Shown piece after piece: positions 10,685 to 17,503 of a stretch of DNA of 42,177 nucleotides. The notes under the pieces are model-generated. The model was not told the origin of the DNA. It was given only the letters and a program-made list of their open reading frames with translations, and did not search any database. A program made the translations under genes and the position numbers. How positions within the stretch are numbered: the stretch's first letter is position 1; each line of letters begins with the position of its first letter. The stretch lies in the UHGV virus genome UHGV-0135963, one strand, 5' to 3'. Source of the stretch: a virus.

Positions 10685-11017
10685 TCAATCGTAATAAGCT
10701 GGAATTGATTTTCCGCGTTGCTTCTGGCGGCCTGAGCAAGTCACACCCATTTCACTGCGTGGCTTGCTGTACCATGTGCGCTGATTCTTGCGCTCAATAC
10801 GTTGCAGGTTGCTTTCAATCTGTTCGTGGTATTCAGCCAGCACTGTAAGGTCTATCGGATTCAGTGCGCTTTCTACTCGTGATTTCGGTTTGCGATTCAG
10901 CGAGAGAATAGGGCGGTTAACTGGTTTTGCGCTTACCCCAACCAACAGGGGATTTGCTGCTTTCCATTGAGCCTGTTTCTCTGCGCGACGTTCGCGGCGG
11001 CGTGTTTGTGCATCCAT
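10685..11017 (-). CDS. N: Antitermination protein N
   Basis: MDAQTRRRERRAEKQAQWKAANPLLVGVSAKPVNRPILSLNRKPKSRVESALNPIDLTVLAEYH... matches lambda N including the arginine-rich boxB-binding motif. The ORF track extends 30 codons upstream (to 11107); I place the start at MDAQ. Confidence 0.85.
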   Translation of the reverse strand: MDAQTRRRERRAEKQAQWKAANPLLVGVSAKPVNRPILSLNRKPKSRVESALNPIDLTVLAEYHEQIESNLQRIERKNQRTWYSKPRSEMGVTCSGRQKQRGKSIPAYYD

Positions 11018-11127
11018 CTGGATTCTCCTGTCAGTTAGCTTTGAGTAACGCGCCGTGATGCTTATCTCCACGGTTGCTGTCTTGCAGCTGCATTTCGCGC
11101 TATTCAAAGCTTTCTGCTTTGAATGCT

Positions 11128-11158
11128 GCCCTTCTTCAGGGCTTAATTTTTAAGAGCG
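11128..11158 (-). promoter_or_regulatory. nutL (boxA CGCTCTTA, boxB GCCCTGAAGAAGGGC)
   Basis: Reverse complement of 11128..11158 reads CGCTCTTAAAAATTAAGCCCTGAAGAAGGGC, the lambda nutL boxA and boxB hairpin. Confidence 0.85.
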
Positions 11159-11202
11159 TCACCTTCATGGTGGTTAGTGCGTCCTGCTGATGGCTTAAAA
11201 TT

Positions 11203-11270
11203 ACAAGAAAGATTGTATGTTGTAAACAAGAAATATTGTAAATGGAGGTGCAAAAAACAAACTCCATTGT
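11203..11270. promoter_or_regulatory. OL/PL region with three 434-type 14-bp operators
   Basis: ACAAGAAAGATTGT (11203..11216), ACAAGAAATATTGT (11226..11239), ACAAACTCCATTGT (11257..11270). The ACAA-6N-TTGT pattern is typical of phage 434 operators. Confidence 0.7.
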
Positions 11271-11320
11271 TTTTAAACGGAAAATAGTTTGTTTTTGGGT
11301 TACTGAGATTGAGGTGGGGA

Positions 11321-12673
<1,353 letters not shown>

Positions 12674-12681
12674 GACATTCC

Positions 12682-12713
12682 CGCTCTTACACATCCCAGC
12701 CCTGAAAAAGGGC
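12682..12713 (+). promoter_or_regulatory. nutR (boxA CGCTCTTA, boxB GCCCTGAAAAAGGGC)
   Basis: CGCTCTTACACATCCCAGCCCTGAAAAAGGGC downstream of cro, near-identical to lambda nutR. Confidence 0.85.
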
Positions 12714-12789
12714 ATTACCAGAAACAAATCTCTATGGTTTTGCGTTTCTTTGCGAAGCCAACTCTATCTAATCATTAAGGAAATTATCT

Positions 12790-13071
12790 ATGGGTACTAT
12801 TGCAACTAAAAGCAAGAAAGCGGCTCGCATCGAGTCAGCCTTGCTGAACAAACTGGCACTGATGGGGCAGAAGACATTCGCTCGAGCAATGGGGGTTCCT
12901 GAATATCAGGTAAGCCGATGGAAGAATGGTTTCTTCTCGCAGGTAAGCATGATGCTGGCTGTTCTGGAATACGGAATCGAAGACGATGAAATGGCTGAGC
13001 TGACTAAGCGGCTTGCCAATTACCTGACAAAAGAAAAAGCCCCGAAGAACGGCGAATTCTTCGAGGCCTGA
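12790..13071 (+). CDS. cII: CII transcriptional activator
   Basis: 93 aa. [18 protein letters not shown]...SRWK...[25 protein letters not shown] parallels lambda CII. AAGGA RBS upstream. Confidence 0.8.
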
Positions 13072-13105
13072 TGTAGAAAGACTGGATCAATCCACAGGAG
13101 TCATT

Positions 13106-13252
13106 ATGACAAAACAACTCAGTCCTTACCAGGACAAAATTCACAAACACATACTACGTGATCGCTTCCTGTCCAGCTTCAAGCAGCCTGGTCGATTCCG
13201 GGCTGAGTTGGAAAAAGTGAAGCTGATGCAGAAGGAGAAAGGTCATGAGTAA
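13106..13252 (+). CDS. Small ORF (48 aa) between cII and the O-like gene
   Basis: Hand-translated [48 protein letters not shown]. Strong SD CAGGAG 6 nt upstream. Stop overlaps the next gene's start. Confidence 0.4.
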
Positions 13253-14105
13253 TCTTGCAACCGTAACACATTTAAGGCCTTCACAACGGCCTGTGGAGCG
13301 TCGTGTGGCAGAAGTTGAAGATGGTTATACCCGTCTTGCAAATGCCCTGTATGAAGAGCTTATCGGCGCAGATTTAACGAAAAATCAGAGCAAGGTTGCC
13401 CACGCCATATGCCGTAAAACATACGGCTACGGTAAAAAGATGGATCGCATCTCTGATAGTCAGTTAGCTCAAATTACCAGGCTGCCAAGACAGAAGGTAA
13501 ACAAGGCCAAGAATGAGCTTATCGCGATGAAGGTAATCCTTCGCGAAGGCCAGCAAATCGGGCCTAACAAGAACATCGAGGAATGGCAAATCGAAGGGTG
13601 TCACTACTCTGGTGATAATGTCACTGCATTGGTGACAAAAAGTGTCACCAAAACGGTGACAGCCCTGTCACCAAAACAGGGACACACAAAAGAAACTATT
13701 ACAAAAGAAAAAAGAAATAATAAAAACACTATGTCCGAAAGTGTTCGGACGGAGTGTGAAAAATCATCTGACCGTCACGAAGAAACCGACAAGGCATTCG
13801 AGGAAATATTCTGGTGTGCAGGCATGCGGAAAGCCGGGAAGAAAAACGCAGCTTCGGCATTCAGAACACAGTTCAGGGAATGGCGTAAAACTACCAGGGG
13901 TACGGCAAGCGAGTTTGCCACGATGCTGGCAGAAGACATCGCATGCAGGAATGGTAAGCAGTTCGGATTCGACAGGTTGTTACCATCGAGCTACCTGAAC
14001 GGTCAACGCTGGAACGACGAGAAGCCAGAAACTATTCAACCACAATCCAAACCATCATCCGCAATCACCGTATCGAAAACTGGCTACGTGTTTTTCGACA
14101 GGTGA
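13245..14105 (+). CDS. O: Replication initiator, lambda O-like N-terminal domain
   Basis: N-terminal region ([57 protein letters not shown]) parallels lambda O. Iteron cluster lies inside the gene. C-terminal domain differs from lambda O. Confidence 0.8.
13600..13735. repeat. Replication origin: iterons plus AT-rich tract inside the O-like gene
   Basis: ggtgacaaaaagtgtcaccaaaacggtgacagccctgtcaccaaaacaggg (inverted GGTGAC/GTCACC repeats) followed by acaaaagaaactattacaaaagaaaaaagaaataataaaaac. Same layout as lambda ori. Confidence 0.65.
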
Positions 14106-14212
14106 ACCATGAAATCAAAAATCAAATCGCTACTGGTCGCTGGTTATAACCACGGCTGGTTAAGTATTTCTTTTGTCGATTTCTGGTTTAAAAATCTCAA
14201 TCTGAGGGAATC

Positions 14213-16093
14213 ATGACGCCAAGTGAACTTAGCGACCTGCTTTGGGCGCAGGTTGACAGGGTGGCTCCGCACCTGTTGCCAAACGGCAAGAAAGAGGGGC
14301 ATGAGTGGGTTGCCGGTAACGTCAACGGCGACAAGGGAAACAGCCTTAAGGTCAACCTTAGCGGCAAGAAAAAATGGGCTGATTTCGCTGAGGGAGACGG
14401 CGGTGACATGCTTGATTTGTGGATGGCATGTCGTGGAATTAACCTGCATCAGGCTATGCAGGAAGCGAAAGCATTTCTCGGTATCAAGGATGACGATCAC
14501 CATTTCGATGCCAAACGTGAGAAGAAATTCTCCAGACCTGATCGCAAGAAAATAGCCCGCTACGTTACCAGAACAGAATCCCATCTTGAGTACCTGCAAT
14601 CGCGTGGCATATCGCCAGAAGTCGTAAAGCGCTACGAGGTTGTCAGCGGCAAGGTGTGGAATGGAGAACGAGAACTTGATGCACTGGTGCTCCCGTACAA
14701 ACGCGATGGTGAGTTGTTGCAGGTCAAGCGAATCAGCACTGAGCGCCCGGACGGGAAGAAAGTCATTATGGCAGAAGGTGATTGTGAACCTTGTCTGTTC
14801 GGATGGCAGGCTCTGGACGCTGGCGTGAGGGCGGTTGTGCTTTGCGAAGGCGAAATTGATTGTATGAGCTATGCGCAATACGGCATCTCGGCGTTATCCG
14901 TGCCGTTTGGTGGAGGAAAAGGCGCTAAGCAACAGTGGATTGAGTTTGAGTATCACAACCTCGACAGGTTTGAGGAAATATTCATCTCGATGGACGTTGA
15001 TGATGTTGGTCGTGAAGCCGCAAGGGAAATCGCAAGCCGACTCGGTGAACATCGTTGCCGTCTTGTTACTCTGCCGTACAAAGACATCAACGAATGCCTG
15101 ATGAACGGTGTTACCGAGGATGAAATCTGGCAGTACATCGGCACGGCATCCTACTTCGATCCTGAAGAACTCTACAGCGCGCGAGAGTTTTACCAGGACA
15201 CTATCAACGCTTTCTACGGCAAGCAGCAGTATCTGTTTAATCCACCGTGGGAATCTCTGGCAGATAAATTCCAGTTCCGTGAGGCCGAGTTGACGCTGGT
15301 CAATGGTGTGAACGGTCACGGAAAAACGGAGGTTGTCGGGCATATGGCTCTTGAGGCAATGCGTCAGGGTGTGAAGACGTGCATCGCGTCACTTGAGCTG
15401 AAGCCTGGTATTCTCCTTAAGCGCCTTACCCGTCAGGCGACGTGCTGCAAGATGCCGCCAGTGCTGGAAATTGACTCTGCATTTAAATTTTATGACGAAA
15501 GACTTTGGGTGTTTGGTCTGACCGGAACGGCGAAATCCGACAGGCTGATCGAAATATTCGACTACGCTCGCCGCCGATACGGGATCCAGTTATTCATCAT
15601 CGACAGCCTGATGAAATGTGGCATAGGCGACGATGACTATAACGGGCAGAAGGCGTTTGTTGACTCGATTTGCGACTTCAAAAACAAAACAAACTCCCAC
15701 GTCATTCTCGTTACTCACTCGCGAAAAGGAGACAGCGAAGAAAAACCAACCGGGAAAATGGACGTAAAAGGCTCTGGAGCGATAACAGACCTGACAGACA
15801 ACCTTTTCATCATCTGGCGTAACAAGGCTCGCGAGAGAGCGTTACAGAGAGTTCAGAGTGGTGAAAAGATGTCAGAGAAGGACGAACAGCTACTGGCATC
15901 TCCGGCATCTATTTTGATGCTTGAAAAACAACGTAACGGCGAAGGTTGGGAAGGTGGTGTCCCGTTGTTCCTTGACGAGCAATCGCACCAGTTCCTGCAA
16001 CTTGAATCAGGATCGCCATATAGCTACATCGCCAATATGCCGAAATCGGAATATGACGAGGCGTGGCGACAGGAAAACGTGACGGAGTATTAA
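14213..16093 (+). CDS. Primase-helicase fusion (N-terminal Toprim primase, C-terminal DnaB/RecA-like helicase)
   Basis: 626 aa. Toprim acidic motifs (VVLCEGEIDCMSY...FISMDVDDVGREAA), Walker A (GVNGHGKTEV), Walker B (LFIIDSL). Takes the place of lambda P. Confidence 0.85.
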   Translation: MTPSELSDLLWAQVDRVAPHLLPNGKKEGHEWVAGNVNGDKGNSLKVNLSGKKKWADFAEGDGGDMLDLWMACRGINLHQAMQEAKAFLGIKDDDHHFDAKREKKFSRPDRKKIARYVTRTESHLEYLQSRGISPEVVKRYEVVSGKVWNGERELDALVLPYKRDGELLQVKRISTERPDGKKVIMAEGDCEPCLFGWQALDAGVRAVVLCEGEIDCMSYAQYGISALSVPFGGGKGAKQQWIEFEYHNLDRFEEIFISMDVDDVGREAAREIASRLGEHRCRLVTLPYKDINECLMNGVTEDEIWQYIGTASYFDPEELYSAREFYQDTINAFYGKQQYLFNPPWESLADKFQFREAELTLVNGVNGHGKTEVVGHMALEAMRQGVKTCIASLELKPGILLKRLTRQATCCKMPPVLEIDSAFKFYDERLWVFGLTGTAKSDRLIEIFDYARRRYGIQLFIIDSLMKCGIGDDDYNGQKAFVDSICDFKNKTNSHVILVTHSRKGDSEEKPTGKMDVKGSGAITDLTDNLFIIWRNKARERALQRVQSGEKMSEKDEQLLASPASILMLEKQRNGEGWEGGVPLFLDEQSHQFLQLESGSPYSYIANMPKSEYDEAWRQENVTEY

Positions 16094-16122
16094 ATGACCA
16101 TCTACATCACTGAGCTTGTAAC

Positions 16123-16155
16123 AGGCCTGCTGGTAATCGCAGGCCTTTTTATTTG
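16123..16155 (+). terminator. Intrinsic terminator after the replication genes
   Basis: aggcctgc tggtaatc gcaggcct followed by ttttatttg: 8-bp GC stem, 8-nt loop, U-run. Confidence 0.65.
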
Positions 16156-16169
16156 GGGGAGAGTAAATC

Positions 16170-16376
16170 GTGGTTGAGTTTATGCTCGTCGCATTCAAAT
16201 GCGTTGGCGTTGGATGGATTCTTCTGACGTTTTTTATTGTTCTGCATAGCTACATTCGTCTTGTGAATGACGGTAAAGACCCATGGTATACGTTGTTTGG
16301 CGCTGCATTTGTCTGGGTGATTATCGGTGTTATGCCTGTCGCTGTAGCAAAAATGGCGTGGCGTTTTTTGAGTTGA
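16170..16376 (+). CDS. Small hydrophobic membrane protein (68 aa)
   Basis: Two predicted TM segments (GWILLTFFIVL, FVWVIIGVMPVAV). GGGGGAGAG RBS. Start codon uncertain (GTG or internal ATG). Confidence 0.4.
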   Translation: MVEFMLVAFKCVGVGWILLTFFIVLHSYIRLVNDGKDPWYTLFGAAFVWVIIGVMPVAVAKMAWRFLS

Positions 16377-16393
16377 ACTGAGGGTAAGTACCG

Positions 16394-16714
16394 ATGGACG
16401 AATCAAGAAGGCAGTTTGAAGAAAGTTGGTTGCGACGTGGAGGCGAATCCTCAGACCTTATCCGTTACCCTGAAAATCACCATGAAATTGGCAGTGGTAA
16501 TATTGGTGGTCAATACGTGATGGACGATGTTCAAGGCCACTGGCAAACGTGGCAGGCATCGCGATCAGCTATTGAAATAACCGCGCCAAAGTTTATCGAC
16601 AGCAGAGAAGCATTAGCCAAAGGGTTTACTGTTGATTATTCCAATGGCTTCGGTGATGCAATGGATGCTTATGAGGAAAACATCCGCGCTGCTGGAATCA
16701 AAGTGAAGGAGTGA
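16394..16714 (+). CDS. Hypothetical protein (106 aa)
   Basis: ORF in early-right orientation with coupled stop/start to the next ORF. Confidence 0.5.
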   Translation: MDESRRQFEESWLRRGGESSDLIRYPENHHEIGSGNIGGQYVMDDVQGHWQTWQASRSAIEITAPKFIDSREALAKGFTVDYSNGFGDAMDAYEENIRAAGIKVKE

Positions 16715-16902
16715 GCATGAATCGACGAAGTAGCTTTTTGGGGTTTGTAATATTCCTGTCCTGCACTGGTTACATCGTAATCTGGTCAATTTCGAACATT
16801 GACCGTGGCGGGGAATATCTCATTGTAATGTTCTTTCCTTTGTTTCTTGGGTGGTACGCCGCAAGGTTGCTGGAAGAATGGGGTTACAGGCATAAAAAAT
16901 AA
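16711..16902 (+). CDS. Small membrane protein (63 aa)
   Basis: Two hydrophobic helices (FLGFVIFLSCTGYIVIW, LIVMFFPLFLGWYAA). Confidence 0.4.
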   Translation: MSMNRRSSFLGFVIFLSCTGYIVIWSISNIDRGGEYLIVMFFPLFLGWYAARLLEEWGYRHKK

Positions 16903-16913
16903 AGGAGTGTTCA

Positions 16914-17324
16914 GTGAAGCAAACAATATTCCTCCGAACTAAGCAACAACAGCAAGCCGCAATCAACGCCATCCTCGCAACTCCTCTCGATAAAGACAAG
17001 CCAGTCACCATCCGCATTACTGACTACAAGCGCAACCTTGACCAGAACGCAAAATTTCACGCGATGCTGGCGGATATCGCTTGTCAGGTTCAATGGTGCG
17101 GCAAATGGTTAAAACCAGAGCAATGGAAGGTTTTGTTGATAAGCGGTCATGCAGTGGCAACAAAGCAGGAAGCTGATGTTTTGCCCGGGCTTGAAGGCGA
17201 ATACGTCAACATTCGCGAAAGCAGCGCGCAGATGAGTGTGAAGCGTATGGCAAGTCTGATTGAGTACACGACAGCATGGGCTATTGGTCAGGGTGTCAGA
17301 TTTACCGACAGGAGGTACGAATGA
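16914..17324 (+). CDS. ninB: NinB (Orf-family recombination mediator)
   Basis: 136 aa. [31 protein letters not shown] parallels lambda NinB (SLDQNRKLWACLGDVSRQVEWHGRWLDAESWK). GTG start with AAGGAG RBS. Confidence 0.8.
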
Positions 17325-17503
17325 GACGACAGCGACGAAGTATCACCGACATCATCTGCGAAAACTGCAAATACCTTCCAACGAAACGCTCCAGAAATAA
17401 ACGCAAGCCAATCCCAAAAGAATCTGATGTAAAAACCTTCAACTACACGGCTCACCTGTGGGATATCCGGTGGCTTAGAGAACGTGCGAGGAAAACAAGG
17501 TGA
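17321..17503 (+). CDS. ninE: NinE
   Basis: [60 protein letters not shown] matches lambda NinE as recalled. The ORF track extends upstream to 17276. Confidence 0.75.

Follow-up and report, generated by a model that had tools for sequence, protein, structure and literature searches.

Probable replication cassette of a P22-like Escherichia coli prophage with a lambda-O-type initiator and a T7 gp4-type primase-helicase

Identity and distribution of the cassette

The lambda-O-type initiator gene in region 13245-16160 of the viral DNA analysed here (UHGV-0135963; 42,177 nucleotides, referred to at its full length as the window) is followed by a gene encoding a primase-helicase, and no lamP match was found in any locus of this module, which raises the question of how a replicative helicase is brought to the origin of such a phage. 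Results of our analysis indicate that the region is quite probably the replication cassette of the early-right region in a P22-like (CUS-3/HK620-like) prophage of E. coli, in which the initiator would bind iterons located in its own gene and recruit the phage's own gp4-type primase-helicase, most likely via the C-terminal tail of the initiator.

The arrangement as such is already known, and the GenBank record of phage ES18 has been annotated accordingly since 2005: it calls gp59 O-like, includes a rep_origin feature, and describes gp61 as 'primase/helicase similar to T7 gene 4'. In P22-like phages the module was described in a paper of 2023. The corresponding regions of phages mEp043 and Sf101 are 98-99% identical to the module of the window (98.8% over the whole, N-domain and iterons included), and the module is present in 296 of 5426 complete E. 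coli genomes (~5%). As a finding, the cassette carries little weight, being a catalogued lambdoid module that is widespread in prophages of E. coli, Shigella, and Salmonella, including Stx2 phages.

Initiator and origin of replication

The first gene of the cassette comprises the following features:
13245-14105, plus strand: initiator gene, encoding a lambda-O-type origin-binding protein of 286 aa (open reading frame, PF04492, TIGR01610)
13302-13586, plus strand: N-terminal winged-helix origin-binding domain, aa 20-114 (Pfam Phage_rep_O, profile positions 1-95 of 95)
13599-13684, no strand assigned: four iterons of 19 bp, all of them inverted repeats of the form TGTCAC-N7-GTGACA (pattern scan)
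13685-13735, no strand assigned: A+T-rich, A-rich tract, presumed DNA-unwinding element, in which mosaic joints fall (composition, alignment)
13726-13757, no strand assigned: tentative inverted repeat, short and with 14-nt arms of 86% complementarity, right of the A+T tract (repeat scan; weak evidence)
13767-14021, plus strand: generic helical core of the C-terminal domain, aa 175-259, with the motif AFExFWxAGMRK..K.KA..AF ... FGFD.L.P..YLNxxRWxDE
14022-14102, plus strand: C-terminal tail, aa 260-286, candidate helicase-docking motif (comparison across loci)

The lambda-O-like character of the N-terminal domain, claimed in the original prediction, is confirmed by domain searches, in which Phage_rep_O (PF04492) matched aa 20-114 with an E value of 1.1e-37 (128.8 bits vs. 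a cut-off of 28.7) and TIGR01610 phage_O_Nterm scored 105.4 bits (cut-off 45.5). In BLASTP, the similarity of the initiator to lambda O (49% identity) is confined to aa 1-157, and past aa 157 nothing significant was found, in agreement with the claim of a non-lambda C-terminus. The protein is 99% identical to 'replication protein O' of mEp043 and Sf101.

An internal iteron/AT-rich origin had been placed at 13600-13735, and both of its elements, four iterons and a tract of 78-83% A+T, were found there, inside the coding sequence and at the boundary of the protein domains. The iterons start at positions 13599, 13619, 13643, and 13666, that is, at spacings of 20, 24, and 23 bp. Four of the five matches to the pattern TGTCAC-N7-GTGACA in the 42-kb window fall within this 86-bp stretch, with 1.5 matches expected window-wide. 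In alignment, the iterons differ from those of lambda and ES18 (ATCCCTCAAAACGAGGGA). The A+T content of the adjoining tract is 78% over 13685-13735 and 83% over 13685-13725, where 71% of the plus-strand bases are A, and the alignment reveals the sequence CAAAACAGGG..ACACAAAAGA.ACTATTACAAAAGAAAAAA as common to the window, lambda, and ES18. Homology to ES18 starts at position 13672 and that to Min27-type phages at 13721. The tentative inverted repeat at 13726-13757 is similar in position to the palindrome that borders lambda ori on the right. The iterons and the A-rich tract are presumed to be the initiator-binding and unwinding sites, respectively.

Primase-helicase and the adjacent small genes

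Downstream of the initiator gene the following features were identified:
14109-14216, plus strand: conserved gene of a 35-aa microprotein, homologue of ES18 gp60 (phrog_21848, E 4e-26)
14213-16093, plus strand: gene of a 626-aa primase-helicase of the T7 gp4 / Twinkle family (phrog_239 'DNA primase/helicase', E 1e-170; PDB phmmer)
14837-15100, plus strand: Toprim domain, aa 209-296 (Pfam Toprim_2, E 3e-12; alignment to T7 gp4)
15275-15994, plus strand: SF4 (RecA-like) helicase domain, aa 355-594 (Pfam, T7 gp4 alignment)
16094-16177, plus strand: ninA, 27 aa (phrog_5907)
16123-16155, plus strand: intrinsic terminator inside ninA, where the nin region begins (scan, fold)

The two long open reading frames, 13245-14105 (286 aa) and 14213-16093 (626 aa), are located as originally described. 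The conserved 35-aa open reading frame at 14109-14216 and the location of the terminator inside the 27-aa ninA frame had been overlooked.

The proposal that a 626-aa fusion of Toprim and a DnaB-like helicase takes the place of P is upheld by the Toprim_2 match, the SF4 helicase motifs, and the homology to T7 gp4. In the PDB phmmer search, T7 gp4 (5ikn, 6n7i) was matched over aa 192-539 (E 2e-23), and Twinkle was matched as well (E 9e-14). Residue-by-residue alignment to T7 gp4 indicates the conservation of the Toprim catalytic residues E (EGEID), DxD (DVDD), and D (KDIN), which are aligned with T7 E157, D207/D209, and D237. The helicase motifs are Walker A (GVNGHGKT), Walker B (LFIIDSL), H3 (VTHSRK), and H4 (KGSGAITDLTD); of two Pfam profiles, both with a cut-off of 27 bits, AAA_25 passed with 27.8 bits and DnaB_C fell slightly short with 23.6 bits. 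The finger residue Arg522 of T7 is replaced by a Lys, invariant in 10 aligned members of the family, which may be a functional substitute. For residues 1-196, Pfam at E<=10 gave nothing, and a weak DnaG-like alignment extends over aa 26-143.

The stop codon of the microprotein gene overlaps the start codon of the helicase gene (ATGA). Annotated in ES18 and LMessi, the microprotein has an intact frame in 18 lineages, which share the motif LL(V/I)AGYNHG, and its median pN/pS is 0.41; the frame is missing in 3 of the 22 enterobacterial loci of the genome scan that have a full-length helicase homologue.

Residues 1-23 of NinA are identical to those of P22 NinA. A terminator at 16123-16155 had been called strong; its presence is confirmed by the scan, which detected a hairpin with an 8-bp stem and six G-C pairs (16123-16146) followed by a T-run, while the predicted fold of -15.9 kcal/mol deviates from shuffled sequences by z = -2.0 only. 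Its DNA is identical to that of a terminator annotated inside P22 ninA and labelled 'L2; similar to phage lambda'. An Rfam search of 11000-17500 gave no match.

Comparison with known replication systems

The same three-gene cassette, with ninA and the terminator further downstream, is present in ES18 (gp59-gp60-gp61, AY736146), epsilon34 (gp50-52), mEp043 (gp054-055), Sf101, and SEN22. In the ES18 group the C-domain, microprotein, and helicase are 88-99% identical to those of the window at the DNA level. However, the N-domain of ES18 and epsilon34 is of the lambda type, as are their iterons, which in the window are of the TGTCAC-N7-GTGACA type, and in ES18 an additional gene, gp62, precedes ninA.

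The window resembles lambda O/ori/P in its homologous N-domain (49% identity), in the location of the origin in the initiator gene, in its four iterons (19-bp inverted repeats) with an A-rich tract after them, in its place in the pR operon, behind cII, and in the two-domain logic of the initiator. It differs in iteron sequence, in its unrelated C-domain, and in encoding a helicase-primase in place of the P loader that hijacks host DnaB. Phage P22, with its genes 18 and 12, shares with the window an O-like initiator (44% N-domain identity), a phage-encoded replicative helicase, and the identical ninA terminator, but its gp12 is a DnaB-family helicase (DnaB and DnaB_C, E 1e-75) without primase, and the C-domain of gp18 is of a third, unrelated type.

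The fusion of a Toprim primase domain to an SF4 helicase, with aligned catalytic motifs, is common to the window protein, T7 gp4, and Twinkle. The identity is about 25%, and the window protein differs in its DnaG-like N-terminal subdomain, which lacks the four zinc ligands, and in the Lys for the Arg finger. T7 replication starts from promoters, not from an iteron-binding initiator.

The Eru5 group of Stx phages (Stx2a_F403; PMC8951638) shares its helicase and its C-domain (95-97% aa identity) with the window, but the Eru5 initiator carries an HTH_36 N-domain with GGAGAAR-coded repeats where the window has Phage_rep_O. Membership of Eru5 is defined by an HTH_36 protein followed by a primase gene downstream of cI, and the window has only the C-domain and helicase in common with this group. 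Many Eru5 helicase genes carry an intein; a literature search found no paper on an intein in the helicase of Stx phages.

C-terminal domain of the initiator

No match to the C-terminal domain was found by Pfam at E<=10, and tblastn with lamO_C gave none in any related locus. Among the IMG/VR helicase loci that have upstream DNA, this C-domain is located directly upstream of the helicase in 79 of 79. Three unrelated origin-binding N-domains are fused to the same C-domain before the same helicase, and the origin is where the joints lie; Stx phages of the Min27/24B/F403 type, for instance, combine an HTH_36 N-domain and GGAGAAR-coded repeats with this C-domain and helicase. Lambda and ES18 have N-domains that are 98% identical and identical iterons, while their C-domains and partner genes are wholly different. 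A strict pairing of the C-domain with the helicase was rejected, as distant homologues of the core adjoin other partners: a DnaC-like loader in Skulduggery, DnaB-like helicases, lambda-P-like proteins, and an unclassified protein of 213-220 aa in Vibrio phages.

The helical core is a widespread generic module, and therefore any matching to the helicase most likely resides in the last ~27 residues. This tail, which follows YLNxxRWxDE, is predicted to be disordered (pLDDT about 50-66). Its ending, [IV]T[VI]SKxG[YL]VF, is present in all 15 window-type loci (44-99% identity), each followed by a primase-helicase, and the linker preceding it is variable; the genera sampled were Shimwellia, Pantoea, Erwinia, Citrobacter, Providencia, Xenorhabdus, and Arsenophonus. 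The ending occurs in 15 of 24 loci in which the helicase follows and in 0 of 24 in which the partner is a different one (p = 2e-6 by Fisher test, the loci being phylogenetically non-independent). A different ending, P[DEQ]W[AM], is found in 7 of 7 loci with a DnaC-like partner and in none of any other class. In a second helicase-linked subgroup (Fraca, LMessi, four genomes) the tail is different and longer, and only an (E/Q)VF(I/V) element is common. The proposal that the C-terminus has been matched to the helicase thus fits the comparative data as regards the divergence of lambda and ES18 in C-domain and partner, the constant neighbourhood, and the tail, which co-varies with the partner class across genera, but not as regards the core, which is generic and not partner-specific.

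Proposed mechanism and alternatives

We propose that the N-terminal winged-helix domain of the initiator binds the four iterons in its own gene to form an O-some, which would destabilise the adjoining A-rich tract. Where lambda captures host DnaB via P, this phage would supply a fusion of a T7-gp4-type hexameric helicase and a DnaG/Toprim-type primase. The initiator most likely recruits this protein by its short disordered C-terminal tail, carried on a generic four-helix core, probably with the help of the 35-aa protein, whose translation is apparently coupled to that of the helicase. Downstream, a tR2-like terminator within ninA would limit read-through. Such a cassette would be independent of DnaB, DnaC, DnaG, and chaperones.

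Alternatively, the initiator might only open the origin. T7 gp4 loads itself on single-stranded DNA, so that an adaptor may be unneeded, and a gp4-like helicase could do the same here; the C-domain and helicase would then travel together because they are adjacent and because the conserved A-rich ori tract acts as a recombination hot spot, and the tail would have another role, e.g., in oligomerisation or turnover. The joints within a tract common to lambda, ES18, and the window are consistent with such a course, as is the occurrence of the generic core with four other partner types, and, as the initiator and helicase genes are adjacent, part of their co-inheritance is simple linkage. However, the tail ending is kept at 44% overall identity across genera, which is beyond the reach of recent linkage, although the linker before it varies, and the partner classes have tail signatures of their own, such as the PxW confined to the DnaC-like loci. 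We consider linkage as the sole explanation unlikely. Very unlikely, in our view, is that the microprotein itself acts as the adaptor or loader that links the initiator to the helicase, comparable to a miniature lambda P or to T4 gp59. The location of its gene between the two, with overlapping stop and start codons, its conservation with the AGYNHG motif, and its presence in both the window-type and Fraca-type subgroups would suit this role, but it is missing from loci of Providencia and Xenorhabdus in which initiator tail and helicase are both retained, is without a match to any known family, and may mainly serve translational coupling.

Recruitment of the helicase through the short tail remains, on comparative grounds, the most likely course. 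Whether the recruited protein also primes is less certain. That the phage brings its own helicase and primase is borne out as far as the presence of the Toprim and SF4 domains is concerned, but the fused protein may not be active as a primase, since its N-terminal primase part lacks the four Cys/His zinc ligands: only H20 and H30 are present there, with no Cys before C73. At the ligand positions, as assigned from the sequence and the CHC2 motif, the sequence presumably reads N/G/D/E, within GNVNGD…ADFAEGDGG. The 626-aa protein could accordingly be a helicase only, its primase half inactive or altered by the loss of zinc-ribbon ligands as in metazoan Twinkle, with host DnaG providing the primers; the Cys-free residues 1-72 and the invariance of D57 and E60 in the family point in this direction. 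We regard it as rather unlikely, since all the Toprim acidic residues (E, DxD, D) are kept, the motif II/III region is DnaG-like by eye, and the clear conservation of the N-domain argues for retained function.

Implications

The co-variation of tail and partner may reflect a modular code in a large family of C-domains absent from Pfam, a proposal that we put forward tentatively and with somewhat less than even confidence. In such a code, a swappable winged-helix N-domain would read the origin, a generic four-helix core would follow, and a C-terminal motif would specify the helicase or loader. The N-domains may include Phage_rep_O, HTH_36, DUF1376, DnaD_N, and others, and the motifs may correspond to partners as follows: ITVSKxGYVF to gp4-like primase-helicases, PxW[AM] to DnaC-like loaders, DPSLIPEYL to lambda-P-like loaders, and a long extra domain to DnaB-like helicases. 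Residues 274-284 of the initiator described here would then be the first docking peptide to be defined for the loading of a T7-gp4-family helicase onto a duplex origin by an origin-binding protein; the 35-aa protein might act as a cofactor.

The remaining value of the cassette is that of an uncharacterised system, as the loading of a gp4-type primase-helicase by an iteron-binding initiator has apparently never been shown, and according to PMC8951638 nothing is yet known on the replication proteins of Eru phages. The co-variation of the tail with the partner provides a cheap and testable handle on the specificity of initiators for helicases, and the efficiency of replication of Stx phages bears on toxin production.

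Layout of the region and its origin

The region under study is part of a lambdoid early-right operon, and every coordinate of the original prediction (ORFs, iterons, and terminator scan) is correct. The features are arranged as follows.

11722-12354, minus strand: cI-like repressor
Between the cI-like repressor and cII: cro-like ORF
12790-13071: cII (Pfam Phage_CII)
13106-13252: DUF2740 ORF of 48 aa, between cII and the initiator gene
13245-14105: initiator ORF of 286 aa
14213-16093: primase-helicase ORF of 626 aa

The DUF2740 ORF and the start codon of the initiator gene overlap (ATGA). The overlapped feature in mEp043, Sf101, and SEN22, apparently a homologue of this ORF, is labelled "tail protein" in RefSeq, which looks like a misannotation of a gene of the early-right operon. 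A strong terminator-like hairpin with 14 pairs and a T-run (13037-13069, minus strand) is antisense to the cII 3' end, at the position that the terminator of the oop antisense RNA has in lambda; it had no match in Rfam.

The lambda-O-like character of the initiator N-terminus is borne out by Phage_rep_O (residues 20-114, E 1.1e-37) and TIGR01610. Residues 1-157 are 49% identical to lambda O, and beyond residue 157 the two proteins are unrelated, as predicted. The expected intragenic origin comprises four iterons, the 19-bp inverted repeats TGTCAC-N7-GTGACA (starts at 13599, 13619, 13643, and 13666), which represent four of the five matches to this pattern in the whole window, and, 3' of them, a tract of 78-83% A+T with A on the plus strand.

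Primase-helicase, microprotein, and terminator

The domain search and structural alignments agree with the assignment of the 626-aa product as a Toprim primase (aa 209-296) fused to a RecA-like SF4 helicase (aa 355-594), with solved T7 gp4 aligning at E 2e-23 and Twinkle at 9e-14. By alignment to T7 gp4, the protein keeps the Glu, DxD, and Asp of Toprim as well as motifs Walker A, Walker B, H3, and H4, with Lys at the Arg-finger position. None of the four zinc ligands of the primase N-subdomain is found, and there is no Cys upstream of residue 73; by our reading, their positions hold N, G, D, and E, and D57 and E60 are invariant across the family. Because of this loss, the priming specificity or activity may differ from that of T7.

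Two features were overlooked in the original prediction: a 35-aa ORF between the initiator and helicase genes (14109-14216), and the location of the terminator inside ninA. The ORF, a member of phrog_21848, corresponds to gp60 of phage ES18; its stop codon and the start codon of the helicase gene overlap. Eighteen lineages, with helicases only 59-98% identical to that of the window, have it intact. The motif LL(V/I)AGYNHG is conserved, and the median pN/pS is 0.41. The ORF thus has the appearance of a genuine gene, the third member of the cassette; three Providencia and Xenorhabdus loci lack it. The terminator scan detected a hairpin (16123-16146) with a T-run within the 27-aa ninA ORF (16094-16177), identical in DNA sequence to the terminator annotated within P22 ninA. 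Taken alone, the fold of the terminator described as strong is only moderately better than that of shuffles (z = -2.0); conservation is the better argument for it.

Mobile endonucleases evidently target the helicase gene. In many Stx phages, about 429 aa (ACPLNEP…VATHN, followed by TEVV) are inserted directly behind the Walker-A GHGK (Min27, EU311208, 2495-5077; L093, L103, and L116; Stx phages 24B, F403, and F451). Judging from its matches to LAGLIDADG_3 and Hom_end-associated Hint, the insert is a homing-endonuclease intein located in the P-loop, its first residue being apparently Ala, not Cys. In Min27, a frameshift separates the last 111 aa of the helicase as "ORF31". Other loci (L060, 3510-4004; also L072, L075, L078, L112, L138, L147, and L160) have 491 bp inserted after the 35-aa ORF and ahead of the helicase gene, encoding a free-standing NUMOD4 and HNH_3 homing endonuclease. 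Insect-symbiont genomes (Candidatus Symbiopectobacterium, L182; Arsenophonus endosymbiont, L186 and L187) have a helicase gene split into several ORFs, and the reading frame of the L182 initiator extends into the sequence of the microprotein; these copies seem to belong to decaying prophages.

A known module with exchanged N-terminal domains

The combination of an O-type initiator with a primase-helicase is already known and common. By megablast, the whole 3.4-kb region is 98.8% identical in mEp043 and Sf101, 98.2% in vB_EcoP-720R6, and 91% in SEN22. In the ES18 GenBank record, gp59 is labelled "similar to phage lambda gpO" and gp61 "putative primase/helicase; similar to phage T7 gene 4", and a rep_origin is marked as "similar to lambda ori". 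The replication type Eru5 of Stx phages has the same C-domain and helicase (PMC8951638); Stx2a_F403, of this type, is among the megablast matches. The segment from C-domain to helicase is present in 296 of 5426 complete E. coli genomes. The remainder of the window is that of a P22-like podovirus (96.7% identity with CUS-3).

In ES18, the N-domain of the initiator shares 98% identity with that of lambda, the iterons are those of lambda, and from the last iteron on the sequence turns into that of the window, whereas lambda continues into its own C-domain and then P. In Min27-like Stx phages, an unrelated HTH_36 domain, accompanied by GGAGAAR-coded repeats of varying number, is fused to the same C-domain. 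The mosaic joints, at window positions 13672 and 13721, fall in or just past a tract common to lambda, ES18, and the window. HTH_36-type initiators (the L024 type of Stx phages, e.g., L028, L063, and L032) vary in how many GGAGAA(R/L) repeats they contain; these are presumably translated iterons, in which case iteron copy number would differ between otherwise near-identical prophages.

Initiator C-domain and its partner

Among 80 IMG/VR helicase loci, the C-domain lies directly upstream of the helicase in all 79 with upstream DNA. All IMG/VR loci with the window N-domain carry the C-domain, and all but one (L144) with enough downstream DNA carry the helicase, in some interrupted by an insertion. 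L144 and L116, both of window-type N-domain, are interrupted: the C-domain of L144 is limited to its first 56 aa, and the best match to the helicase in L116 is displaced downstream by about 2 kb relative to its usual place. Both may reflect insertions or rearrangements.

The C-domain core (aa 175-259; 366 representative clusters at E<=1e-3) is joined to HTH_36, Phage_rep_O, DUF1376, DnaD_N, and Lin1244_N domains and is not partner-specific. Across 185,579 species genomes scanned, with reference partners checked against Pfam, it preceded the primase-helicase in 22 loci (and in phages Fraca and LMessi), DnaB-like helicases in eight, DnaC/IstB-like loaders in six (and phage Skulduggery), lambda-P-like proteins in three, and an unclassified Vibrio protein in four (and two Vibrio phages). 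The partner is tracked by the tail following the YLNxxRWxDE motif, not by the core. The ending [IV]T[VI]SKxG[YL]VF, preceded by a hypervariable linker, occurs in 15/15 window-type loci (44-99% identity, Shimwellia to Arsenophonus) and in 0/24 loci with other partners. Counted over all loci followed by the helicase (15/24), the contrast has a Fisher p of 2e-6, a value that treats related loci as if they were independent. The ending P[DEQ]W[AM] is that of the DnaC-linked tails (7/7) and DPSLIPE[YF]L that of the lambda-P-linked tails, and DnaB-linked tails are 90-125 aa long. In a second subgroup linked to the helicase (Fraca type), the tail is different, with an (E/Q)VF(I/V) element common to both subgroups. 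Any matching of the initiator C-terminus to the helicase therefore most likely lies in the tail, as the core also accompanies DnaB-, DnaC-, and lambda-P-like partners. The observation is confirmed and its interpretation supported in outline. The new content is modest: a candidate rule linking tail to partner, a microprotein that is conserved, and a primase domain devoid of zinc ligands.

In lambda, O binds the iterons through its N-domain and P-DnaB through its C-domain, and unwinding of the A+T tract is the work of the O-some. By analogy, the initiator of the window would open the origin, and its C-terminal tail would recruit the phage's own gp4-type helicase-primase. The parts of the cassette and the co-variation of tail and partner are observed; we infer an initiator-helicase contact and host independence. 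Alternatively, the helicase could load itself, or the 35-aa microprotein may act as an adaptor. If recruitment by the tail is true, initiation would proceed without DnaB, DnaC, or the DnaK/DnaJ/GrpE step that releases P, and it may be independent of DnaG too.
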